A program made the translations under genes and the position numbers. Positions 1-43,551 of a stretch of DNA of 43,551 nucleotides are shown in pieces; within the stretch, counting starts at the first letter, position 1; each line of letters opens with the position of its first letter. Source of the DNA: a virus (taxonomy: Duplodnaviria; Heunggongvirae; Uroviricota; Caudoviricetes); the IMG/VR virus record IMGVR_UViG_2718217869_000004; one strand, given 5' to 3'. The notes beneath the pieces were generated by a model. It made no database searches. It was not told the DNA's origin and worked only from the letters and a program-made list of their open reading frames with translations.

Positions 1-459
1 TTACTTACGGCCCGTAAACGGGCTGCCCGGATAGGGAATCGATAACTGCTCTCCCATTTTATCCTCTTCAAGCTGGTGCTTTATGTAGTCCTGTATCTTC
101 GCCGTGTTCTTACCCACCGTATCGACATAGTACCCTCGGCACCAGAACTCCCTGTTTCTGTATTTGAATTTCAAATCCCCAAACTGCTCGTAAAGCATCA
201 GACTGCTTTTCCCTTTCAGATATCCCATAAAGCCGGATACGCTCATTTTGGGTGGGATTTCCACAAGCATATGGATATGATCTGCGCGGCACTCTGCTTC
301 CAGAATCCGTACGCTTTTCCACTCACACAGCTTTCTCAAAATACTGCCTATCGCCCTACGCTTCTCTCCGTAAAACGCCAGTCTTCGGTATTTCGGCGCA
401 AAAACTATGTGATATTTACAGTTCCAGCGGGTGTGCGCTAAGCTCTTTTCGTCCCCCAT
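1..459 (-). CDS. tnpA: IS200 transposase TnpA (HUH/Y1 type, 152 aa)
   Basis: Translation MGDEKSLAHTRWNCKYHIVFAPKYRR... matches IS200 TnpA; start at second Met of the ORF gives 152 aa; stop codon at window positions 1-3. Confidence 0.9.
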   Translation of the reverse strand: MGDEKSLAHTRWNCKYHIVFAPKYRRLAFYGEKRRAIGSILRKLCEWKSVRILEAECRADHIHMLVEIPPKMSVSGFMGYLKGKSSLMLYEQFGDLKFKYRNREFWCRGYYVDTVGKNTAKIQDYIKHQLEEDKMGEQLSIPYPGSPFTGRK

Positions 460-650
460 TGGGACCCCCTTTTGATTTCTTGTTTGACACTTGCAGTTGC
501 CAGACCGCAAGGTGTTTTAACAAATCAAAAGGGGTTTTAATAACTGGCTCAAAGCTGAAAGCTTTCCGGAACCCCCAGCCTAGCTGGGGGTTTTCTGTGC
601 ACAAAAACAACGGGCGTATAACACGCCCGTTTCAATATTTAACACATGTA
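1..650 (-). mobile_element. IS200 (IS200/IS605 family) insertion sequence; right end cut by window edge, left end with subterminal hairpins abutting the icd fragment stop
   Basis: tnpA ORF plus about 190 bp of structured non-coding left end (hairpins cccccagcctagctggggg and aacgggcgtataacacgcccgtt); exact left boundary estimated. Confidence 0.8.
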
Positions 651-653
651 GAG

Positions 654-835
654 ATTACATGTTCTTGATGATCGCATCACCAAACTCTGAACATTTCAGC
701 AGTTTAGCGCCATCCATCAGACGCTCGAAGTCATAGGTTACAGTCTTGGCGTTGATTGCGCCTTCCATACCTTTAACAATCAGGTCTGCGGCTTCAGTCC
801 AGCCCATATGGCGCAGCAGTAGTTAGATGGTTCAT
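654..835 (-). pseudogene. icd: 3' fragment of isocitrate dehydrogenase gene (icdC-like att-site duplication at prophage end)
   Basis: Minus-strand translation ...[54 protein letters not shown] is the Icd C-terminus; similarity stops abruptly near 835. Confidence 0.85.
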
Positions 836-1263
836 ATACAACCGCATGATAAATAAAAATAATCCTATAATTTTATTGTAAATCAACTGGCTTTTATCTT
901 TCCCCTAACCTATTGATTATCAATGTATGTTTTTTGGTTTTGATAACCGTTTTAGAGGGCAAAAACAAGTGCCTGTACCTATCAGCCCCTTCACGGCAAA
1001 GGGATTTTAAATCATGCGTGTTTTCACAAACTATCAATGGCTTAACTAAATTTTTCGCCAATAACGTACGCTGTGAGTGAGAGGTGGATATGAAGTTACA
1101 CACTCCCGGAAAATAAAGAATTGAGCGTTATCTCATGCTATTAATGAAAAGTGTTTGCTTAATAGATTACATATAACTATGATTCAAGCCCAATTAAAGT
1201 CGTGTGTCTTTGGCTTAAATTGGCAAACAAACAATCAAGTCAAGAATATAAAGGAACTATTCA

Positions 1264-2232
1264 ATGAATAAGAATTATAAAACGTTTAAACTTGAACTAT
1301 GGGAGAAGTTTAAGCATCAATGTGCTTACTGTGGCACTAAACTTTATGAACCATTGATGGCGGATGTTGATCGTTTTTTCCCAAAATCAAAGTATACTGA
1401 CTTCCAAGATGCTACAGACAACCTGCTCATCGCTTGTAAGGCATGTAGCATGATTAAAAAAGATCAGTTTCCTCTCGATGAAAATGGCAAACCATTACTT
1501 CTAAATCCTTTAAATGAAAGTTTTTCAGAACATATAAAACAAAATAAAAATGGATATTTAGAAGGTTTAACTGAGCGAGGACATGCGACTATAGATATAT
1601 TACAGTTGAATAGACCTTCATTAATTGAACAGCGCATTCTAGATGTTATTGATATGCAGTACTCTGATGATCGAACGCTATCTGAACGAGATGTCTATAT
1701 GACATTCCAAAATAGTATGCAGAACGCCATAAAACTAAATGATGCTCAGTTAAAAATTGATAGCACTTTACAAATACAAATGTCGTATATGCTATATGCC
1801 AATACAATAACTTCCTTGGAAACATATTTATGTGACAGATTTATTTCCCTAATTCATGGTAGCCAAACTAATTTGAGAAATTTTGTTGAAACCTTCAAAG
1901 ATTACAATACAGAAAAATTCTTACTTTCTGAATTATTTATAAGGCATGAACAAATAGAGTCTCAAGCGATAGAGTCTATGAAGAGTGTTCTTTATCATAA
2001 TCTGCCAAAAGTAAGTGGCATGTATCGAGATACCTTTGGTATTAAATTCCCTGTTTTCACAGAAGTTTATAAAAGCGTGTTAATTAGGCATGACTTAGTT
2101 CATCGAGCAGGTAAAACAAAAAATGGTAATTTTCATAAGTTAGATTCAGAGTCAGTTAAAGATGTTATCAAAAAATGCTGTGACTTGGTTGAACAACTAG
2201 AAAAAGAGCTTAAAGATTGTGCATCATTCTAG
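1264..2232 (+). CDS. HNH-like nuclease-fold protein (322 aa) with degenerate N-terminal HNH motif and unknown C-terminal domain; AT-rich cargo gene
   Basis: CAYCGTKL...VDRFFPKSKY...DNLLIACKACSMIKKD resembles a C-x2-C...(D/E)H..P.S...NL..C..C HNH finger but with Arg in place of the His and no Asn; strong AT bias versus phage core. Confidence 0.75.
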   Translation: MNKNYKTFKLELWEKFKHQCAYCGTKLYEPLMADVDRFFPKSKYTDFQDATDNLLIACKACSMIKKDQFPLDENGKPLLLNPLNESFSEHIKQNKNGYLEGLTERGHATIDILQLNRPSLIEQRILDVIDMQYSDDRTLSERDVYMTFQNSMQNAIKLNDAQLKIDSTLQIQMSYMLYANTITSLETYLCDRFISLIHGSQTNLRNFVETFKDYNTEKFLLSELFIRHEQIESQAIESMKSVLYHNLPKVSGMYRDTFGIKFPVFTEVYKSVLIRHDLVHRAGKTKNGNFHKLDSESVKDVIKKCCDLVEQLEKELKDCASF

Positions 2233-2428
2233 GTAATTGCCACCAAATCGAAGGTGATCGCGCTTGCGGTCACCAAAAGTAATAAACTATTCATTCCCAT
2301 TCGATCATCTGAACCAACACAATTTTATTTAATAAAGTTGACCTACTTCATTATTTGATACCCATCCAATGTGCGCAAGGGCTGCTTCTGGCACATGGTT
2401 ACCCTTGATGAGAAGGTAGATCACCGCC

Positions 2429-2546
2429 ATGGGGTGTCGGGGGCGGAGGTTCAAATCCTCTCGTGCTGACCAAAAATCCTCGAAGAACCAGCCTGTTACG
2501 GCTGGTTTTTTTTGCCTGTTTTCTGAACGGGGAAGCAATGGGGAAA
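2429..2546 (+). repeat. Direct repeat copy 1: tRNA-Pro-like 3' fragment (T-arm GGTTCAAATCC, acceptor 3' strand, CCA) plus downstream hairpin/T-run
   Basis: atggggtgtcgggggcggaggttcaaatcctctcgtgctgacca followed by ccagcc-tgttac-ggctgg-ttttttt; near-identical copy at 3600-3716; no 5' tRNA half upstream. Confidence 0.75.
2486..2513 (+). terminator. Rho-independent terminator-like hairpin inside direct repeat copy 1
   Basis: aaccagcc tgttac ggctggtt followed by a T8 run. Confidence 0.55.
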
Positions 2547-2735
2547 TTAGCTTACGGTTGACCCCACTGCGAAAAGCGCAGATTTTTATCAATGGACGTA
2601 CATAGGGTAGATAAGGCACAATACTGCTTCAATGTCGTCTGATGGTATTGTAATACTAATTACATCAGATGATTTAACTAGATTAGTTCTTTATAGAAAT
2701 CATTCTTGAATATTAATTGGCTGACTGAGGTTTTT

Positions 2736-3521
2736 ATGGATGAAAAATACAGAAGATTTGTTGATGAGGTTGACTTTTCAAGACAATTATTAGGCATAGG
2801 GCTCACTTCCCTAAGGAAAGCAAATTTTGCAAGTAGAGGATTGTATTTTCAAGCATTATCCGGCATCAGTTTAGGATTAGAAAGGCTTATGAAACTTTGC
2901 CTTATGCTTGATGATTATAATAAAAATGGAAAATATACATCACGCAAAAAATTAAGAGATTACGGTCATAACTTAAGCAAGTTATTCAACCTAGTCATTG
3001 AGAGAGTTGATTCTCCCTCTGGCTTAAATGAAATTCACTACAGAGTGATGGAGTTGTTAACTAATTTTGCAAATTCATCAAGATATAGTAATATTGATTT
3101 CATTACTAATGACAACGACAATGATCCCATGAAGCAATGGTATAATGAAATCGATAAGAGCATTTACGATGAAATATTAACAAAAAGACAAAAAAATATA
3201 ATTGATAAAAAATGCGAGCAATACCGAAGCTATGGTGAAACACTGCCATGCTATGTGCTTGGATATTATGATGAAGACAGAAACCATATAAACTCTGCAG
3301 GGGATTTAAATTATTTACTTAAAAGAAGTGAAATGCTTGCTGGTTATCGCACTTTATTAGTTATTCATATCATAGAATGCATCTATAACATATTAGACTC
3401 AATGACAGTTCAAGCAAAAGATAATCACTTCCACCATCTTGAATTAGGTCGTTTTTTTGCAACCATCATTTATGGCTCTGATAGAGACAAAATCAATAGA
3501 AAAAATTTTATCCGTATGTGA
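2736..3521 (+). CDS. Hypothetical protein (about 261 aa), AT-rich, unrecognised family; candidate accessory/defence gene
   Basis: Long ORF with GAGG RBS 6 nt upstream of ATG at 2736; sits exactly between the two tRNA-fragment direct repeats. Confidence 0.7.
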   Translation: MDEKYRRFVDEVDFSRQLLGIGLTSLRKANFASRGLYFQALSGISLGLERLMKLCLMLDDYNKNGKYTSRKKLRDYGHNLSKLFNLVIERVDSPSGLNEIHYRVMELLTNFANSSRYSNIDFITNDNDNDPMKQWYNEIDKSIYDEILTKRQKNIIDKKCEQYRSYGETLPCYVLGYYDEDRNHINSAGDLNYLLKRSEMLAGYRTLLVIHIIECIYNILDSMTVQAKDNHFHHLELGRFFATIIYGSDRDKINRKNFIRM

Positions 3522-3599
3522 GACTACGAAGCGACCGACGAATGATGCTATCAACTTACTGTAGACGCATATAGGCCATCAGAATATTAGCACGACACT

Positions 3600-3716
3600 A
3601 TGGGGTGTCGGGGGGCGGAGGTTCAAATCCTCTCGTGCCGACCAAAAATCCTCGAAGAACCAGCCTGTTACGGCTGGTTTTTTTGCCTGTTTTCTGAACG
3701 GGGAAGCAATGGGGAA
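3600..3716 (+). repeat. Direct repeat copy 2: tRNA-Pro-like 3' fragment plus terminator hairpin
   Basis: atggggtgtcggggggcggaggttcaaatcctctcgtgccgacca...ccagcctgttacggctggttttttt; differs from copy 1 by a few indels/substitutions. Confidence 0.75.
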
Positions 3717-4111
3717 TTACAGGGGAAAAACCCCGTCAAATGTTGCCCCCGTATCGCTAGCACACAATGATTAAGTATCTTTTTCACTTTCGGAATTCAT
3801 CAATTCACAAAACCATCATTCCGATTTACCTTACATGCTCCTTTTAAATCTTTAACGGTGTGCACCACTTTTTCTAACTGCCCTATACTTTCAGTCTGAC
3901 ATACGGCTGGAGGTTTCTATGTGTGGACGCTTTTCACAGTCAATGACCCGTGAAGATTATCTTGCCCTTCTCGCTGATGAATCAGAACGCGATATTCCAT
4001 ACGATCCAGAACCCATCGGAAGATTCAACGTAGCGCCAGGAACAAAAGTTCTGCTTCTGAGCGAACGTGATGAGCAGTTGCATCTTGATCCAGTTATCTG
4101 GGGATACGCCC

Positions 4112-5450
4112 CATAAGCGCTAACTTAAGGGTTGTGGTATTACGCCTGATATGATTTAACGTGCCGATGAATTACTCTCACGATAACTGGTCAGCAATTC
4201 TGGCCCATATTGGTAAGCCCGAAGAACTGGATACTTCGGCACGTAATGCCGGGGCTCTAACCCGCCGCCGCGAAATTCGTGATGCTGCAACTCTGCTACG
4301 TCTGGGGCTGGCTTACGGCCCCGGGGGGATGTCATTACGTGAAGTCACTGCATGGGCTCAGCTCCATGACGTTGCAACATTATCTGACGTGGCTCTCCTG
4401 AAGCGGCTGCGGAATGCCGCCGACTGGTTTGGCATACTTGCCGCACAAACACTTGCTGTACGCGCCGCAGTTACGGGTTGTACAAGCGGAAAGAGATTGC
4501 GTCTTGTCGATGGAACAGCAATCAGTGCGCCCGGGGGCGGCAGCGCTGAATGGCGACTACATATGGGATATGATCCTCATACCTGTCAGTTCACTGATTT
4601 TGAGCTAACCGACAGCAGAGACGCTGAACGGCTGGACCGATTTGCGCAAACGGCAGACGAGATACGCATTGCTGACCGGGGATTCGGTTCGCGTCCCGAA
4701 TGTATCCGCTCACTTGCTTTTGGAGAAGCTGATTATATCGTCCGGGTTCACTGGCGAGGATTGCGCTGGTTAACTGCAGAAGGAATGCGCTTTGACATGA
4801 TGGGTTTTCTGCGCGGGCTGGATTGCGGTAAGAACGGTGAAACCACTGTAATGATAGGCAATTCAGGTAATAAAAAAGCCGGAGCTCCCTTTCCGGCACG
4901 TCTCATTGCCGTATCACTTCCTCCCGAAAAAGCATTAATCAGTAAAACCCGACTGCTCAGCGAGAATCGTCGAAAAGGACGAGTAGTTCAGGCGGAAACG
5001 CTGGAAGCAGCGGGCCATGTGCTATTGCTAACATCATTACCGGAAGATGAATATTCAGCAGAGCAAGTGGCTGATTGTTACCGTCTGCGATGGCAAATTG
5101 AACTGGCTTTTAAGCGGCTCAAAAGTTTGCTGCACCTGGATGCTTTGCGTGCAAAGGAACCTGAACTCGCGAAAGCGTGGATATTTGCTAATCTACTCGC
5201 CGCATTTTTAATTGACGACATAATCCAGCCATCGCTGGATTTCCCCCCCAGAAGTGCCGGATCCGAAAAGAAGAACTAACTCGTTGTGGAGAATAACAAA
5301 AATGGTCATCTGGAGCTTACAGGTGGCCATTCGTGGGACAGTATCCCTGACAGCCTACAAAACGCAATTGAAGAACGCGAGGCATCGTCTTAACGAGGCA
5401 CCGAGGCGTCGCATTCTTCAGATGGTTCAACCCTTAAGTTAGCGCTTATG
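4112..5450 (+). mobile_element. IS186 (IS4 family), 1339 bp, with 23-bp terminal inverted repeats and 10-bp target duplication
   Basis: Ends CATAAGCGCTAACTTAAGGGTTG ... CAACCCTTAAGTTAGCGCTTATG; flanking direct repeat GGATACGCCC at 4102-4111 and 5451-5460. Confidence 0.9.
4167..5279 (+). CDS. IS186 transposase (370 aa)
   Basis: Translation MNYSHDNWSAILAHIGKPEELDTSARNAGAL... matches the IS186 transposase; lies between the IRs. Confidence 0.9.
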   Translation: MNYSHDNWSAILAHIGKPEELDTSARNAGALTRRREIRDAATLLRLGLAYGPGGMSLREVTAWAQLHDVATLSDVALLKRLRNAADWFGILAAQTLAVRAAVTGCTSGKRLRLVDGTAISAPGGGSAEWRLHMGYDPHTCQFTDFELTDSRDAERLDRFAQTADEIRIADRGFGSRPECIRSLAFGEADYIVRVHWRGLRWLTAEGMRFDMMGFLRGLDCGKNGETTVMIGNSGNKKAGAPFPARLIAVSLPPEKALISKTRLLSENRRKGRVVQAETLEAAGHVLLLTSLPEDEYSAEQVADCYRLRWQIELAFKRLKSLLHLDALRAKEPELAKAWIFANLLAAFLIDDIIQPSLDFPPRSAGSEKKN

Positions 5451-5936
5451 GGATACGCCCCCGGTTGGTGGGATAAACCGCCGCTCATTAATGCACGGTC
5501 TGAAACTGCTGCCACCAGCAGAATGTTTAAACCACTCTGGCAGCATGGCCGCGCAATTTGCTTTGCTGATGGATGGTATGAGTGGAAAAAGGAAGGCGAC
5601 CAAAAACAACCCTACTTTATTCACCGGGCAGACGGTCAGCCGATTTTTATGGCGGCGATCGGCAGCACACCATTCGAACGTGGAGATGAAGCAGAAGGTT
5701 TCCTGATAGTTACAGCTGCAGCTGACAAAGGACTGGTTGATATTCACGACAGACGACCACTGGTACTGCTACCGGAAGCCGCGCGTGAATGGATGAGGCA
5801 GGATGTTGGAGGGAAAGAAGCAGCGGAAATTGCAGCCGACGGTGTTGTACCGGCTGATAAATTTATATGGCACGCCGTAACGCGTGCCGTCGGGAATGTG
5901 AAAAATCAGGGCGCCGAACTAATAACGCCAATATGA

Positions 5937-6358
<422 letters not shown>

Positions 6359-6360
6359 GG

Positions 6361-6603
6361 CTAAAGTCCTCCGTTTGGATTGAACAGCTGAAAGGTTCGG
6401 TTCTCGCCTTCCTGCGTTGATACATCGCGGAATGTTGTCACATAACATTCTATCCAATCGTTGGCCTGCTTCATCGTCCAGTGCCAGTTAACCTTACCCA
6501 GTTCCTGGACAAACCGCTGTGTGGTGACAGTCTTCCGGCCATTCGGTTCTCGCTGTATCGAAGCATGCCAGGCTATTTCAATATCGCTACGTTGTGGCAT
6601 CAT
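6361..6603 (-). CDS. Hypothetical small protein (about 80 aa) immediately upstream of and translationally coupled to the UmuD-like gene; possibly ImpC-like
   Basis: ORF MMPQRSDIEIAWHASIQREPNGRK...; its stop is 2 nt from the UmuD-like ATG; LexA box 40 bp upstream; start codon choice uncertain. Confidence 0.5.
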   Translation of the reverse strand: MMPQRSDIEIAWHASIQREPNGRKTVTTQRFVQELGKVNWHWTMKQANDWIECYVTTFRDVSTQEGENRTFQLFNPNGGL

Positions 6604-6642
6604 TAACCCCTTCTTGAACACTGGATAAAAAAACAGCATAAG

Positions 6643-6662
6643 CACTGTGTATCCATCCAGTA
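6643..6662. promoter_or_regulatory. LexA (SOS) box between divergent dinI-like and small-ORF/umuD-like units
   Basis: cACTGTgtatccatcCAGTa fits CTG-N10-CAG consensus TACTGT(AT)4ACAGTA; 16 bp upstream of the dinI-like start. Confidence 0.65.
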
Positions 6663-6677
6663 AAGAGGCAATAAGCA

Positions 6678-6920
6678 ATGTTCGTGGAACTCGTTTATGA
6701 CAAAAGGAATTTTGATGGCCTGCCCGGTGCAAAAGATATCATTCTGGGCGAATTGACTAAGAGGGTTCACCGGGTCTTCCCTGATGCTGATGTCCGGGTA
6801 AAACCGATGATGACACTGCCGGCGATCAACACTGACGCCAGCAAGCATGAGAAGGAACAGATAAGCCGTACTGTTCAGGAAATGTTTGAAAAGGCTGATA
6901 TGTGGCTGGTTTCAGATTAA
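6678..6920 (+). CDS. dinI: DinI family protein (DNA damage-inducible protein I homologue, 80 aa)
   Basis: Size and C-terminal ...QISRTVQEMFEKADMWLVSD resemble DinI (...QRISEILQETWESADDWFVSE); AGAGG RBS; LexA box upstream. Confidence 0.8.
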   Translation: MFVELVYDKRNFDGLPGAKDIILGELTKRVHRVFPDADVRVKPMMTLPAINTDASKHEKEQISRTVQEMFEKADMWLVSD

Positions 6921-7048
6921 ACGCCTTGAACCGTCATATTGCTTAAGTACAATCCGCCGTGACTGGCAATCATTCAATACTCGCACTATCGAACGTTCGC
7001 CAGTTCGTCGCCGCCCGTTCTTGCATACGACGACGCGGTGGCGTTTTC

Positions 7049-7600
7049 TCAACGCCGCGCAGGAAATTTTTTGTATAGCGTCGACACCCCTACATCATAA
7101 ATTATAGCCACACGTTTTCTAGACTCACCTGCAGCAATCAACCTTCCAGCCTGAGCCCACTCTTCTGCGGTTAACTTTGGTCGTCTGCCGCCGATCCGAC
7201 CATCTTCGCGCGCAGCAGCTAAGCCAGCCCGTGTTCGCTTAACAATAAGCTCTCTTTCCATCTCGGCAAGCGCCCCCATGACATGAAAGAAAAAGCGCCC
7301 CATTGGTGTTGAGGTATCTATACTGTCGGTCAGGCTACGGAAGTTTACCCCTCGCTCCCTCATTTCTTCGACCAGCACGACAAGATGCCGCATGCTGCGA
7401 CCGAGGCGATCCAGCTTCCAGACAACCAGAGTGTCACCTTCCGATAATGTCCTGAGCAGTTTTTTCAATCCCGGCCTTTCGGACTTTGTACCGCTTATCT
7501 TGTCTTCAAAAATCAGCTCGCATCCTGCACAGTTCAGCGCATTACGTTGTAGATCTGTGTTCTGGTCATTTGTTGACACACGTACATAGCCAATAAGCAT
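7049..7600 (-). CDS. pin: Pin/Gin-family DNA invertase (serine recombinase)
   Basis: MLIGYVRVSTNDQNTDLQRNAL...VVWKLDRLGRSM...HTH tail; typical resolvase/invertase motifs; next to the invertible tail-fibre segment. Confidence 0.9.
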   Translation of the reverse strand: MLIGYVRVSTNDQNTDLQRNALNCAGCELIFEDKISGTKSERPGLKKLLRTLSEGDTLVVWKLDRLGRSMRHLVVLVEEMRERGVNFRSLTDSIDTSTPMGRFFFHVMGALAEMERELIVKRTRAGLAAAREDGRIGGRRPKLTAEEWAQAGRLIAAGESRKRVAIIYDVGVSTLYKKFPARR

Positions 7601-7654
7601 GGTAGATCTCCCTGACAAAAGCAGGGATGATGCCATTTGCTCGTTATTTCTGCA

Positions 7655-7680
7655 TTTTCATAAATGTTGGTTTGGGAGAA
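7655..7680. other. Inversion crossover site 1 (gix/pix-like 26-bp site)
   Basis: TTTTCATAAATGTTGGTTTGGGAGAA; reverse complement shares half-site TCTCCCAAACC-AA with site 2 and resembles gix TTATCCAAAACC. Confidence 0.65.
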
Positions 7681-8169
7681 GGCTCTGCATTACCTGTTGG
7701 TGTCCCTGTTCCGTGGCCCTCAGCCACTCCGCCAACAGGCTGGCTAAAATGCAACGGAGCAGCTTTTTCTGCTGAAGAATATCCGGAACTGGCAAAGGCT
7801 TACCCGACAAATAAATTGCCTGATTTACGCGGTGAATTTATCCGTGGCTGGGATGACGGGCGTGGTATTGATGCTGTACGTGCCTTGCTAAGTCTTCAGA
7901 ATGGAGGAGTGGAATCACACACCCACCAAGGGCAGCTCTTCAGAGTTAGTGATTATCGTACAAAAGAAATACCAGCATCAGAAGTTATGGGAAGAGGATA
8001 TATTGCAAGCCTGACGCCGGGTGCTGATAGCCCACTTGATTTTGATGATTATTCTGTATCTTCTAATCCAAATGGATATTTTGTCGGGAATCAGAGAACA
8101 ACAGCATATGGGATAAATGAAACCCGTCCACGGAATATTGCATTTAACTATATCGTGAGGGCTGCATAA
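7669..8169 (+). CDS. Alternative tail-fibre C-terminal variable segment (silent in current orientation)
   Basis: ORF ...GAAFSAEEYPELAKAYPTNKLPDLRGEFIRGWDDGRGID... typical fibre tip; frame at the crossover site matches the constant fibre N-terminus after inversion. Confidence 0.7.
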   Translation, partial: GLGEGSALPVGVPVPWPSATPPTGWLKCNGAAFSAEEYPELAKAYPTNKLPDLRGEFIRGWDDGRGIDAVRALLSLQNGGVESHTHQGQLFRVSDYRTKEIPASEVMGRGYIASLTPGADSPLDFDDYSVSSNPNGYFVGNQRTTAYGINETRPRNIAFNYIVRAA

Positions 8170-29460: not shown

Positions 29461-30852
29461 TCACTTAATAGGATTTGGTTTTATGTCGTCAAGCCAGTCG
29501 TTATCACCTCTTAGCTTGGCTACTCGTCCTTCAACATTAGTTAATGGTTTATAAGCAGAGTATTTGCCTATAGCCCTAGCAGAATGCTCTCCAGCAACAC
29601 GATAATTTTGGAAGTCCAACTCAAGTCCATGCTGCTCCGCTCTCATTCGAATATAACCACGAAGCATGTTTTCTCTAAATCGAAACCAAGATGGACGATT
29701 CCCTAAAGCAGGGATGATGATGCATCCAAATGTCGGTTTCTTCAATGCGTTGAACTTTCGCTCAAACGTGGATTTATCTAAAGGTGTTACATCAAGCGAT
29801 TTGCAAATTTTAACGTACGATTCTGATATATGAGTCTTATGTCTGGTCAAATCAGCCATATCGGACATAGCCCAAAGAATATGCTTATATGACTCATCAC
29901 GTCCCTCTGTTGCATCCGTGTAACTTTGCCTTAAAGTTTCCGAGACTGAATCAATTGCATCATTTAACCCTTTAATGAAAAGGTTGTAATCAACAGAGCT
30001 ATATTCACGTATTGAGCTTTGACATGTTAAAAGGATTTTTTCACAAATAAGATGAATGTAGTTCGGGAACCCGTCACTAAGACCCGCAATTTTATAGCGG
30101 ACAGAATCATCGACAGTCAGGCCAAACTCATCGAAAGCATTATCAATTATTTGAAAACGACCATTCCATGGTAAACTATCGAGATGTACCTGATGTATTT
30201 GTCGCTCACTTGATTTATGCCCTCCGATTAAAGTAACGAGAGAATCACCAATCCCCGTAAAAATTAATTTTACTTCACACGCCTGATCACCAAGTTGCTT
30301 AATGAGTGATCCAAACTTTTGTCGTTCTTCATCAGAGTCAATTTGGTCAAACTCATCGATAACTATATAAGGAATCTTTGAGTGAACTTTAGTTAAAAAT
30401 TGCAACGCCCGAACGGCTGCAGAAACTGAGTCAATTTTCAGTTCTGGATAATTATATTTTTGATTTTGACCAGCATTGATACCACCAATTCCAGCCACAT
30501 TTAAGCCAAAGCTCCATCCCTGTGTATCGATTTTCTTATCCTGAGGTGTGCCTCGCAAAATAATGTCATTCATGACACTTGAAAAAGTGGATTCTTTCTC
30601 GCAGCCAACCAAAATAGGTTCAGCATCTTCCTGCAGCTTAAAAGCAACAGTTTGCGCTAAGGATGTCTTTCCTACTCCGCGATCACCATAAATGAAAGCA
30701 TGCCGACCTGTAGCATAAAGCGCCAATTCGAGATCGGTTACATGTTTTTCACGTCCAAATAACAGTTCCATAGAAACAACTGGACCCGTTGGTCGCAAAA
30801 CTTTATGCAGTTTATGCATAAAGTCTCGCAAAGAAAGACCTCCACAGAGCAT
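29461..30852 (-). CDS. P-loop NTPase (AAA+-like ATPase, 463 aa) moron; AT-rich
   Basis: Walker A GDRGVGKTS and Walker B YIVIDEFD; codon usage and AT content differ from flanking phage genes; own terminator downstream. Confidence 0.8.
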   Translation of the reverse strand: MLCGGLSLRDFMHKLHKVLRPTGPVVSMELLFGREKHVTDLELALYATGRHAFIYGDRGVGKTSLAQTVAFKLQEDAEPILVGCEKESTFSSVMNDIILRGTPQDKKIDTQGWSFGLNVAGIGGINAGQNQKYNYPELKIDSVSAAVRALQFLTKVHSKIPYIVIDEFDQIDSDEERQKFGSLIKQLGDQACEVKLIFTGIGDSLVTLIGGHKSSERQIHQVHLDSLPWNGRFQIIDNAFDEFGLTVDDSVRYKIAGLSDGFPNYIHLICEKILLTCQSSIREYSSVDYNLFIKGLNDAIDSVSETLRQSYTDATEGRDESYKHILWAMSDMADLTRHKTHISESYVKICKSLDVTPLDKSTFERKFNALKKPTFGCIIIPALGNRPSWFRFRENMLRGYIRMRAEQHGLELDFQNYRVAGEHSARAIGKYSAYKPLTNVEGRVAKLRGDNDWLDDIKPNPIK

Positions 30853-41117: not shown

Positions 41118-41363
41118 ATGCTTCAAATGCTGACACTTGAGGAATGGGCTGCAGAAAAATTTAGGAGTAATCCTCCAAGTGTGTCCACATTGCGTCGTTA
41201 TGCTAAGCAGAATTTATTTTGTCCACCGGCAATGAAACAAGGTCGACTGTGGCGAGTACGTGAGGACGCAGAGTTAGTTGGGGAATTAGTTACTCCAGTA
41301 ATCAAGAAAAGTGATTCTATTATTCTGCAAAGGATTTTAAGCAATGGCAGCCAGACCACGTAA
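41118..41363 (+). CDS. xis: Excisionase (Xis)
   Basis: 81-aa ORF immediately upstream of and overlapping int; ...LTLEEWAAEKFRSNPPSVSTLRRYAK... excisionase-like. Confidence 0.8.
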   Translation: MLQMLTLEEWAAEKFRSNPPSVSTLRRYAKQNLFCPPAMKQGRLWRVREDAELVGELVTPVIKKSDSIILQRILSNGSQTT

Positions 41364-42471
41364 AAATAATGTTTCAGTACCTAACTTGTATCCGCTTTAT
41401 AGCAGAAAAGTAAATAAAGTCTATTGGCGATATAAGCATCCAGTGACCGGGAAATTTCATTCGTTGGGCACAAATGAAGCTGAAGCTATTGCTATTGCCA
41501 CTGAAGCTAACACTCGTCTGGCTGAGCAAAGAACCCGGCAGGTTCTAGCTATCAGTGATAGGATCGCAACCAGCAAAGGAAAAACTATAACAACATCATC
41601 ATGGTTAGAGCGTTACCAAGCTATTCAGGATGACAGGCTGAAAAGTGGTGATATAAAGCTCAACACCTATAAACAGAAAGCCAAACCAGTATCCTTGCTC
41701 AGGGAACGAGCAGGAATGAAGTTAATTTCATCCGTTGATGTAAGGGATATCGCACAATTGCTTGACGAGTATATCACTGCCGGGCAACCGAGGATGGCGC
41801 AAGTAGTCCGCTCCGTTCTAATTGATGTATTCAAGGAGGCACAACACTATGGGGAGGTCCCTCCTGGCTATAATCCAGCATTAGCGACCAAACAGCCCAG
41901 AAGAAAAATTACCCGACAACGGTTAAGTCTTGAAGAATGGCAAAAAATCTTTGATATCGCAGATGCCAGTCATCGTTATATGGGGAATGCCATGCTGTTA
42001 GCACTGGTTACCGGTCAGAGGTTAGGTGATATCTCGCGTATGAAATTTAGCGATATTTGGGATGATCATCTTCACGTCATCCAGGAAAAAACCGGGAGCA
42101 AAATCGCCATCCCGCTTTCCCTGCGCCTCAATGCAATTAACTGGAGTTTACGCGATGTAGTAGCCCGCTGCCGTGACTATGCAGTCAGCCCATACCTTGT
42201 ACATTTTTTTCGTACGACTTCACAGGCTGAACGTGGCGCGCAGGTTAAAGCCAATACATTGACGATGAATTTCACTAAAGCGAGGGATTTGGCGGGAATT
42301 GATTGGGGGGATGGAACTCCTGCAACATTCCATGAACAACGGTCTTTATCTGAACGTCTATACAAAGAACAGGGGTTAGACACACAAAAGTTGCTGGGAC
42401 ATAAATCACCTAACCAAACAGCTCGATACCATGATGATCGTGGGAAAGATTGGGTTAAAGTAGCCCTCTGA
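41344..42471 (+). CDS. int: Tyrosine integrase (lambda Int family, e14 IntE-like)
   Basis: 375 aa, MAARPRKNNVSVPNLYPLYSRKVNKVYWRYKHP...; C-terminal catalytic region ...HEQRSLSERLY...LGHKSPNQTARYHDD. Confidence 0.9.
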   Translation: MAARPRKNNVSVPNLYPLYSRKVNKVYWRYKHPVTGKFHSLGTNEAEAIAIATEANTRLAEQRTRQVLAISDRIATSKGKTITTSSWLERYQAIQDDRLKSGDIKLNTYKQKAKPVSLLRERAGMKLISSVDVRDIAQLLDEYITAGQPRMAQVVRSVLIDVFKEAQHYGEVPPGYNPALATKQPRRKITRQRLSLEEWQKIFDIADASHRYMGNAMLLALVTGQRLGDISRMKFSDIWDDHLHVIQEKTGSKIAIPLSLRLNAINWSLRDVVARCRDYAVSPYLVHFFRTTSQAERGAQVKANTLTMNFTKARDLAGIDWGDGTPATFHEQRSLSERLYKEQGLDTQKLLGHKSPNQTARYHDDRGKDWVKVAL

Positions 42472-42504: not shown

Positions 42505-43551
42505 TTAGCGTACCGCTGGTTCTGCTTGAGCTGGCGGATCATTAGGTATGATCAAATTAAACTGACCACGAGCAACATGTCCGTTTTCGGTCACTTCTAA
42601 ATAGCTAATTCTTACTACCTCACCAGTCACAATAGCGGAGGCAAGCGCCTGTAACTCAACCGGGCGAGCAATATCCTCAGCTACTTTTATAGTAAAACTC
42701 TCTCCATTACTGACCCGGATCACACTTAAGTTTAACTCAGAGCTTGATATTCCGGATCGAGAGAGCCCCTTAATATAAAAGTTATCAAAGCGTTCTGTTC
42801 TTTCTCTGTCAACACTTTGCCTGTTTCGATAATCCTGAAGGGCTGCACCATCATATTGTTGATTTCCGATCTTTACGGACTCAGCATCTGACGCGACCGA
42901 TTTAAGCAAAGAGGACTTTCCATCTTCACCATGTGCTTCAATTTCGCGGCTAAGACTAGTTTCTCCCCTACGTTTGACCTCTCTCCCCAACTCAAATGAG
43001 CGTGTCATACCATCTACTACCGTTTGAGTCGTCTGAGTTTGAGCATTTAAGTCTGCGGCATGATCTTGGCTATTTGTGTACAAATAATAGCAACCACCTA
43101 CCGTCAAAGCGGTAATCAGTGCTAGCAAAATTGTCATTTTCTGAACGCCAGTCATACCTTCAAACGCTCCCGTGAGGAATGCAAGAAACTGATTAATGGT
43201 ACCTGACCAGTCAGTCTCTGAATCAGTAGAACCTTCCTTTATTTTAAATATAACATCCAAAGACTGTTTATCTTCATTAGTCAGCCTTTGTAAATTTGAG
43301 GTGCCATACTTCGCCAATGCATAAGCACGTTGAAATGACTCATGCATACTCGCCAAGCCATACACCATAGAGCTAGTCAGTGAAGAATGAAATTTTTCAC
43401 CTTTTACATTGATATGAAGATTCGGCCACCCTTGAAAATCTATATCTGCAGGTATATCAGCACCGGGATGTTCGGTTTCCTTTTGTAGAAAATCATCCAC
43501 AACGTTCCAAAATGTTTCTGCATTCTCAATAACAATTGCTGCATCAGTCAT
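42505..43551 (-). CDS. Hypothetical membrane-anchored protein (at least 348 aa; N-terminus at window edge, may be truncated); AT-rich cargo next to int
   Basis: Single central hydrophobic helix MTILLALITALTVGGCYYLY between two soluble domains; convergent with int. Confidence 0.7.
   Translation of the reverse strand: MTDAAIVIENAETFWNVVDDFLQKETEHPGADIPADIDFQGWPNLHINVKGEKFHSSLTSSMVYGLASMHESFQRAYALAKYGTSNLQRLTNEDKQSLDVIFKIKEGSTDSETDWSGTINQFLAFLTGAFEGMTGVQKMTILLALITALTVGGCYYLYTNSQDHAADLNAQTQTTQTVVDGMTRSFELGREVKRRGETSLSREIEAHGEDGKSSLLKSVASDAESVKIGNQQYDGAALQDYRNRQSVDRERTERFDNFYIKGLSRSGISSSELNLSVIRVSNGESFTIKVAEDIARPVELQALASAIVTGEVVRISYLEVTENGHVARGQFNLIIPNDPPAQAEPAVR

Follow-up and report, generated by a model that had tools for sequence, protein, structure and literature searches.

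A duplicated proL-type attachment-site relic brackets an AT-rich candidate defence gene in an e14-like prophage

Introduction

How does a single AT-rich gene come to lie between two copies of a tRNA 3′ end inside a prophage? The question is raised by positions 2429–3716 of IMG/VR record IMGVR_UViG_2718217869_000004 (Caudoviricetes), a stretch of 43,551 nt referred to here, at its full length, as the window. An open reading frame (ORF) of 261 aa, ORF261, is framed there by direct repeats that contain part of a tRNA-Pro gene. An initial annotation, made from the letters alone, had read the arrangement as a mini-island captured by the prophage, with the repeats as attachment (att) site remnants of a tRNA-targeting integrative element and the enclosed gene as a candidate for defence. 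That interpretation is partly supported. We find that the prophage is integrated at icd and that its repeats are copies of one half of the site used by relatives that integrate at proL; the ORF261 cassette is probably a 1.17-kb unit that was added to a relic of this site already present in the prophage.

Two direct repeats derived from tRNA-Pro

The repeats and their parts are as follows.

2429–2549, + strand: repeat copy 1 (tRNA-Pro(GGG) from A32 to CCA, 2429–2472; 7 nt more of common core, to 2479; hairpin at about 2482–2512)
2529–2534 and 2540–2545, + strand: GGGGAA motifs of copy 1, where homology to the family P′ arm ends
3600–3720, + strand: repeat copy 2 (tRNA-Pro from A32 to CCA, 3600–3644; common core to 3651; hairpin 3654–3683)
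3700–3705 and 3711–3716, + strand: GGGGAA motifs of copy 2

Two near-identical direct repeats had been noticed before, and a gapped alignment extended them to approximately 121 nt (2429–2549 and 3600–3720), with a spacing of 1171–1172 nt from copy to copy. A single substitution (C/T, in the 3′ strand of the acceptor stem) separates the copies, as do three one-base indels, each within a run of G, T or A; a repeat finder returned the similarity, which is far above chance, as three contiguous blocks of 15, 74 and 39 nt. Among 60 related sites the two copies are each other's closest relatives, and they share derived changes that are missing at almost all of the other sites, namely the loss of U47 and of the A after the T-run. 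Such sharing is expected if the copies have one origin, and equally if gene conversion took place afterwards. The GC content of the repeats (0.52–0.54) is close to that of the prophage body (0.52).

Each copy matches the K-12 proL gene for tRNA-Pro(GGG), at 50 and 51, respectively, of the 52 positions that span A32 in the anticodon loop to 7 nt beyond the CCA end. The tRNA-derived part is 44–45 nt long. The identity proposed earlier, the 3′ 44 nt of tRNA-Pro, was therefore correct, while its start had been placed at the T-arm and lies in the anticodon loop. The hairpin downstream (AACCAGCCTGTTACGGCTGG), followed by a T-run, scored as terminator-like in a scan (3654–3683), in agreement with the earlier description, and has its counterpart in copy 1. 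The GGGGAA motifs lie 3′ of the hairpin with a spacing of 11 nt. An origin of the entire repeat from the E. coli proL chromosomal region was ruled out, as the native terminator, to which the hairpin of the repeats is related, and downstream DNA diverge after CCAAAAATCC. Native proL genes of Kluyvera sichuanensis, Enterobacillus tribolii and two other Enterobacteriaceae have the hairpin of the repeats downstream, and the phage arm hence holds a host-derived tRNA 3′ end and terminator of a non-E. coli lineage. The hairpin and T-run were also found after tRNA-like 3′ ends (…GGTTCGAATCCC…CCGCCA) at loci of two Halomonas species (L076 and L082), and its occurrence is thus not limited to proL.

The prophage is integrated at icd

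The whole window is a complete e14-like myovirus prophage with icd as its integration site, and eight complete E. coli chromosomes carry the region at 100 % identity. The features that fix its position are these.

655–822, − strand: icdC, the displaced 3′ fragment of icd, where the prophage meets the chromosome (as annotated by RefSeq for the identical locus of strain C1)
41344–42471, + strand: IntE-type tyrosine integrase, specific for icd and not for proL (Pfam Arm-DNA-bind_1 and Phage_integrase; intE and xisE are annotated beside icd)

In C1, the RefSeq gene order is bluR, ycgX, ymgL, IS200, icdC, the gene for an HNH endonuclease, ORF261 (annotated as hypothetical) and the gene for an SOS-response-associated peptidase (SRAP) split by IS421, followed by the genes for an umuD-like S24 peptidase, dinI, pinE, tail-fibre genes and Mu-type baseplate genes. 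The opposite prophage end has xisE, intE, a hypothetical gene and intact icd. The prophage is assigned to icd because icdC lies at one end, with xisE, intE and intact icd at the other, and these flanks rule out that it sits at proL. No proL-type integrase was found in the window, where a Pfam scan detected IntE as the sole tyrosine integrase; Pin is a serine invertase.

The repeats are copies of one half of a proL-type attachment site

In strain 100181 the proL locus, beside yejM, is occupied by a prophage related to this one (SRAP, umuDC, dinI, pin, tail fibres). There, intact proL leads into the same hairpin, GGGGAA repeats and a 200-nt spacer, and then SRAP. The following parts of the window were compared with this junction and with other relatives.

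3717–3918, + strand: P′ arm, continued from copy 2 but not from copy 1, and region upstream of SRAP (third GGGGAA at 3722–3727)
2384–2428, + strand: arm 5′ of copy 1, conserved in relatives and with a weak likeness to the 5′ half of a tRNA
3555–3599, + strand: upstream arm of copy 2, diverged and without P-arm features

Positions 3717–3918 are 93.6 % identical to the proL prophage of strain 100181 and 92–95 % identical to the DNA that leads from proL, or from a relic of it, to SRAP in six loci (L002, L003, L013, L024, L050 and L061). Because copy 2 and 3717–3918 align with the attL junction of strain 100181, together they represent the half of such a site that consists of core and P′ arm. The proL match and this junction uphold the earlier view that the repeats derive from a tRNA-Pro attachment site and lie in accessory DNA of the prophage. 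The idea that the prophage had captured a foreign site fails here, as copy 2 is the phage family's own att half, contiguous with SRAP just as it is in attL at proL. Copy 1 matches the attL of strain 100181 only for its ~120 nt.

The 45-nt arm of copy 1 is homologous to the arms of 15 other loci and of MS6192 (z = 10 for L052 and 7.4 for MS6192), and 2384–2545 as a whole is 87 % identical to six relatives. The arm of copy 2 resembles that of L044 only (z 4.4). Thus the statement that a 5′ tRNA half is missing holds for the native half, and has to be amended for copy 1, which has this conserved, weakly tRNA-like arm. Compared over the 60 sites, upstream sequences of 23 unrelated kinds have their junction at one and the same nucleotide, immediately before ATGGGG, in a part that lies outside the search pattern used to find them. 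Both window repeats begin, on their left, at this anticodon-loop junction, which is common to the family.

Six true attR junctions, recognized by native E. coli proL flank downstream, have a P arm with a GGGGAR-AAACC motif approximately 130 nt upstream of the core, and the P′ arm at sites of this family has two or three GGGGAA motifs spaced by 11 nt. The motif layout of the proL-type P and P′ arms is like that of lambda-type arm sites, and we infer that the GGGGAA repeats are probably integrase arm sites. Neither window copy has a P arm with GGGGAR or native B′ sequence downstream, and no GGGGAR motif was found in the 220 nt 5′ of copy 2. Since both copies have the order arm, core, P′ and neither has a P arm, they are not an attL and attR pair.

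The relic is not confined to prophages of this type. Gifsy-2, which is lambdoid and integrated elsewhere, carries the part from T-arm to CCA as well as this hairpin, GGGG repeats and the first stretch of an SRAP-like ORF. The Gifsy-2 relic (L072, 43996–44334 of the record) lies in an unannotated stretch to the right of sseI.

A near-intact tRNA 3′ part in phages as different as these, and a window copy at the 3′ end of each cargo gene, before the terminator, would also be expected if the units were functional RNAs, such as decoys for anticodon nucleases (tRNA halves or tRNA-like) or 3′ processing signals of the cargo mRNAs, duplicated one per cargo gene. The equivalent in MS6192 is moreover annotated as an 82-nt tRNA-Pro and folds like a cloverleaf. 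We consider such an RNA role highly improbable. ARAGORN detected zero tRNAs in the window; the Rfam tRNA model gave 20.9 bits (E 0.25; gathering score 29) for the copy 1 region (2407–2461) and nothing for copy 2. Predicted folds of both copies lack a closed acceptor stem, with energies no better than those of shuffled sequences (z −0.5 and −1.8), and U47 is lost from both. Conservation of the 3′ part is also partly imposed by the pattern of the IMG/VR scan, which consisted of the T-arm and acceptor part alone and returned 55 loci, and is expected as well from recombination with proL or attP. A functional tRNA or tmRNA was ruled out by the ARAGORN result, the sub-threshold Rfam score and the predicted folds.

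Origin of the tandem

The DNA between the repeats, with ORF261 as its sole ORF, is composed as follows.

2547–2658: left flank of the inserted unit, with no match outside the same arrangement
2567–2581, + strand: small hairpin and T-run just 3′ of copy 1, inside the left flank (terminator-like scan)
2659–3523, + strand: mobile homology unit of cargo gene 2, made up of ~75 nt of upstream region and ORF261
2736–3521: ORF261 (261 aa, GC 0.32)

When one repeat and the intervening DNA were removed in silico, the product had the order arm 1, core, P′, spacer, SRAP. This is the layout found 3′ of the cargo in MS6192, L050, L024 and L013 (cargo, arm, core, P′, spacer, SRAP). As the deletion gives back the arrangement of the relatives, a unit of 1.17 kb appears to have been added to a single existing relic, and the suggestion that the repeats and the enclosed DNA act as an added unit gains support.

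In the history that we consider probable, the accessory end of the prophage would carry a relic of the tRNA-proximal half (core and P′ arm) of the site used by proL-integrating relatives. Its parts would be the 52 proL-identical nt, from the anticodon loop to 7 nt beyond CCA, the proL-type terminator hairpin and the GGGGAA repeats. The ancestral state would have been the HNH gene alone, followed by arm 1, core, P′ and SRAP. The unit added to it would comprise the left flank (2547–2658), the gene unit (2659–3523), arm 2, and a second core with 70 nt of P′. It could have arrived by a single crossover of a circle in the common ~120 nt, either homologous or integrase-mediated, or by unequal exchange between close phage genomes, and would have left ORF261 between two copies of the same hand. 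Each copy would then give the cargo gene 5′ of it an intrinsic terminator. The repeats would allow the cassette to be lost or exchanged by RecA-type recombination, and would not permit canonical excision by an integrase, because neither a P arm nor a proL-type integrase is present. The predicted deletion product is arm1-core-P′-GGGGAATTACAGGGG.

The layout of repeat, cargo and repeat would equally fit an active or recently active mini-island, resembling a cis-mobilizable element (CIME), in which a 1.17-kb circle with ORF261 and one site was integrated by a proL-type integrase acting in trans from a co-resident prophage and is still movable. Prophages integrated at proL that could supply such an integrase are present in E. 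coli, and the junction of 23 upstream sequences at one nucleotide points to site-specific recombination generally. Two further loci lend themselves to this explanation. One is L031 (IMG/VR 3300029641_000059), with different cargo, where three direct copies of the relic at 1554, 2622 and 6077 lie beside purB in the order relic, truncated SRAP start, 252-aa gene, relic, full SRAP, 606-aa DUF7380/DUF4209 gene, relic, umuD; it is an independent case of relic reiteration and counts equally for the history given above. The other is L042, ~7 kb with an integrase and bounded by tRNA-Pro cores. A mini-island at the window locus is nevertheless unlikely. Both copies are arm-core-P′ and lack an upstream P arm with GGGGAR, and their identity continues ~65 nt past the 52-nt core shared with attB, into phage-specific DNA, which makes the target a phage site rather than a chromosomal tRNA. 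The 2659–3523 unit is common to P2-like, P4-like and CP4-like elements with the repeats excluded. No cognate, proL-type integrase is encoded in the window. The 1,171-bp circle junction predicted by this explanation, arm2-core followed by the P′ tail of copy 1 (...GGGGAAATTAGC), was not found in IMG/VR or metagenomes, where both arms and both flanks were met solely in the window arrangement. An empty site, a deletion product or a second context was likewise not found in the collections searched (5426 E. coli genomes, IMG/VR and JGI metagenomes). Relatives with a single unit exist, but carry other cargo. That the repeats belong to the mobile unit of ORF261 itself was ruled out, as homology elsewhere spans 2659–3523 only.

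A broader proposal is that the relic is an integron-like docking platform of temperate enterobacterial phages, at which integrase-less cassettes, each with one copy of the relic, are inserted, stacked and exchanged by the proL-type integrases of co-resident prophages with the crossover in the anticodon loop. It would account for the 23 upstream sequences that meet at one nucleotide and for the arrays of two to three copies. We regard it as distinctly unlikely.

ORF261 is a candidate anti-phage gene

The ORF between the repeats had been described as belonging to no known family, and indeed no significant Pfam, NCBIfam, PHROG or PADLOC family was found for ORF261 (for PADLOC, none at E ≤ 1). A profile of the ORF261 family gave no match among PDB sequences, and hhalign related ORF261 neither to its HNH neighbour nor to a HEPN protein encoded 5′ of the relic in MS6192, both of which were considered as possible relatives. 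A word-indexed search found 26 ORF261 clusters in Enterobacterales, Aeromonas and Pasteurellaceae, and an exhaustive profile search found 1,141 representatives at E ≤ 1e-3 (clusters at 50 % identity). Nearly all of the best 150 profile matches listed are 250–285 aa long, and the members sampled are annotated as 'hypothetical' and have no Pfam domains. Among plasmids, tblastn gave one weak match, from Vibrio.

The AlphaFold model of ORF261 is confident (pLDDT 89), and we are confident in assigning to the modelled protein a HEPN-like fold with a four-helix HEPN core. Pfam HEPN (PF05168) scored ORF261 itself below its cutoff (E 0.17; 12.5 bits, cutoff 22) and matched 6 of 16 family members, with a best E value of 1.6e-5. 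The residues conserved in the family are E11, G47, E49-R50, K53, H78, F111, R116-Y117, N119 and W135. Close systems are the HEPN abortive infection (Abi) and toxin proteins, namely AbiV (9bj5), the HepN/MNT toxin (5yep), the AbiA C-terminal domain (8oz7) and Csm6 (8jbc). Unlike these, ORF261 has no Rx4-6H motif and has the conserved E49-R50-x2-K53, H78 and R116-Y-x-N119 instead; it is also longer by ~130 residues and has no Pfam or PADLOC family by sequence.

Homologues of ORF261 were found in several kinds of mobile element. Two P2-like prophages carry one, that of Klebsiella between gpS and gpV and that of Proteus at its end, following ogr. Another is beside the primase of a P4-like satellite, a further one adjoins an AAA_21 ATPase pair of a CP4-like island, and in Xenorhabdus a homologue lies near HicAB and phage genes. 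Outside these, a homologue lies between hsdS and hsdR in a Gallibacterium type I restriction operon and another adjoins a GmrSD-like gene in a spirochaete. PrrC is embedded in a type I restriction locus. The neighbours vary, and no conserved partner gene of ORF261 was found. A duplicated flank also brackets cargo in the Proteus mirabilis P2-like prophage L009. There ogr on one side, and a repeat of the 3′ end of this gene on the other, enclose the homologue together with a 234-aa ORF; the two 3′-end copies (5854–5896 and 7649–7691) are 43 nt long and 81 % identical.

Judged by its sequence and contexts, ORF261 is low-GC variable-slot (moron) cargo with its own upstream region. It is a credible and good candidate for an anti-phage gene, because of the HEPN-like fold and of homologues in variable slots and a type I restriction operon, and the earlier suggestion of a defence role is in this respect sustained. 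The ORF is not a fragment of a housekeeping gene. Expressed in a lysogen, ORF261 on its own would serve as a HEPN-like effector and restrict superinfecting phages through abortive infection, possibly by cleaving RNA.

Several observations weigh against the account given here, of the tandem and of ORF261. The HNH gene, ORF261 and both arms were seen in one arrangement only in the collections searched (8 of 5426 E. coli genomes, 3 IMG/VR contigs and 2 metagenome contigs), and as no intermediate was found, the order of events is drawn from the relatives. The near-identity of the copies could stem from later gene conversion and not from the founding event. The arm-site role of GGGGAA is read from position and recurrence. 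ORF261 is without a PADLOC match and, by tblastn, without a homologue in sequenced phages, and no sigma-70 consensus promoter was found 5′ of it. The canonical HEPN Rx4-6H motif is missing, the invariant R116 being part of the sequence RYSNIDF, with no His 4–6 residues on. A distant relative, P0033 (metagenome scaffolds L086 and L087), lies between an mlaF-like gene and mlaE of an Mla operon, a non-defence context.

The want of a PADLOC or Pfam family, the missing motif and the mla context would suit a different role for ORF261, as a HEPN-fold regulator, an antitoxin-like or a nucleotide-binding protein that is neutral or selfish cargo. We rate this as rather unlikely, given that homologues recur in the variable slots of P2-like, P4-like and CP4-like elements, that one is in a type I restriction operon and another beside a GmrSD-like gene, that ORF261 is an AT-rich single gene with a co-transferred upstream region, and that polar residues are strictly conserved over ~1100 clusters.

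The cargo slot and its neighbours

The genes on either side of the tandem are as follows.

1264–2232, + strand: cargo gene 1, a 322-aa HNH nuclease with a PtuB-like N-terminus, ending 5′ of copy 1 (GC 0.32)
3919–5936, + strand: SRAP gene, split by IS421 at about 4113–5449 (Pfam SRAP on both halves; annotation)

The HNH protein matched the PtuB models of PADLOC (E 1e-23) and mREase_IV (E 2e-11), with weak Pfam matches to HNH_4 and HEPN_RiboL-PSP; its C-terminus is weakly RiboL-PSP/HEPN-like. The HNH gene and ORF261 are found in the same 8 of the 5426 E. coli genomes, always both. SRAP is the first gene of a conserved block of SRAP, umuD-like, dinI and pin. In metagenome contigs without IS421 (L073 and L074), position 4112 is joined to 5450, and some E. 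coli genomes are likewise free of the IS. IS421 is IS4-like.

Comparison of gene orders suggests that the relic is linked to the SRAP, umuD and dinI block and marks the inner edge of a variable slot with AT-rich defence-type genes. Relatives away from proL have variable genes 5′ of the relic. In MS6192 these are the HEPN protein and two hypothetical proteins, and the IMG/VR loci encode TIR, DUF4062, DUF7380/DUF4209, GIY-YIG, REase-like, DUF2971 and DUF7014 proteins. The order in the group to which the window belongs is cargo, relic, SRAP, umuD, and that in one other group is SRAP, cargo, relic, umuD. Nothing specific was found in the literature on a described proL-relic module or a defence hotspot of e14.

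Contig L042 (IMG/VR 3300013002_000194, 1–7232) is 7.2 kb long with a tRNA-Pro core at both ends, 7081 nt apart, and encodes a tyrosine integrase, a RES-domain protein, two HNH nucleases and an RNase T-like exonuclease. Two explanations fit L042, namely a true integrative island of small size at tRNA-Pro, or circularity of the contig.

Elsewhere in the window, a gene for a 463-aa AAA_16/nSTAND1-type ATPase (29461–30852, − strand) lies in a low-GC patch (GC 0.40–0.44) within the prophage. Its PADLOC match is weak (mad8, E 2e-4), and it may be a second defence-type cargo gene. A 348-aa ORF (42505–43551, − strand) occupies the cargo position of the other prophage end, between intE and icd, and has no Pfam or PADLOC match. 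In K-12 e14, the cargo position on the intE side holds lit, ymfD and ymfE. Just beyond the other prophage end, positions 1–650 contain an IS200 transposase gene between ymgL and icdC, and an STnc490-type Hfq-binding RNA (469–592; Rfam 146 bits) adjoins this gene.

Comparison with known systems

The e14 prophage of K-12 has mcrA at its icdC end, and there too a nuclease-type defence gene occupies the slot beside icdC; the window slot differs in holding the PtuB-like HNH gene and ORF261 with an att relic between them. The closest counterparts of the repeats are the attL and attP of proL-integrating relatives (strain 100181, L002). Common to both are tRNA identity from the anticodon loop to beyond CCA, a phage-supplied replacement 3′ end and terminator, repeated short arm motifs and, for copy 2, the same phage gene (SRAP) contiguous downstream. 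The window differs in that its prophage is at icd with IntE, the site is duplicated inside the prophage, and an intact tRNA, a cognate integrase and an opposite-handed partner site are absent.

CIMEs, and tandem accretion at the att sites of integrative and conjugative elements and integrative and mobilizable elements, are covered in a review (PMC5704250, citing Pavlovic et al. 2004). The cassette resembles a CIME in being a short integrase-less segment with att-derived direct repeats from a tRNA 3′ end, in tandem with a larger integrative element. CIMEs by definition retain attL and attR (PMC5704250), whereas the window copies are of the same hand. The setting is also different, as it is a phage genome integrated elsewhere and not a chromosomal tRNA locus, and evidence of mobilization was not found.

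The hotspots of P2 and P4 (2022, PMC9122126) are similar in size (~1–5 kb), in their high gene turnover beside conserved phage genes and in their AT-rich nuclease, TIR and HEPN-type genes, and ORF261 homologues occur in P2-like and P4-like elements. Here the phages are e14/SfV-like and lambdoid (Gifsy-2), and the inner anchor of the window slot is not a gene but a non-coding att relic that can be reiterated between cargo genes. On present evidence the cassette is a variant of a known prophage cargo architecture and not a new kind of element.

Implications

ORF261 is put forward as a single-gene anti-phage candidate from a family of ~1,100 clusters (50 % identity), with a predicted HEPN-like fold and a non-canonical conserved motif. 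Two att halves of the same hand, in a prophage integrated elsewhere, offer a concrete case in which cargo stacking by homologous exchange can be set against an integrase acting in trans. If the relic were a docking platform, defence genes would spread among unrelated phages (e14/SfV-like and lambdoid Gifsy-2) whatever their own integration site. A non-coding landmark, made up of the 3′ part of tRNA-Pro, a terminator and GGGGAA repeats, appears to mark a cargo slot in e14/SfV-like and Gifsy-type prophages, and may be used as an anchor for the mining of defence genes, as conserved anchor genes serve for P2 and P4.

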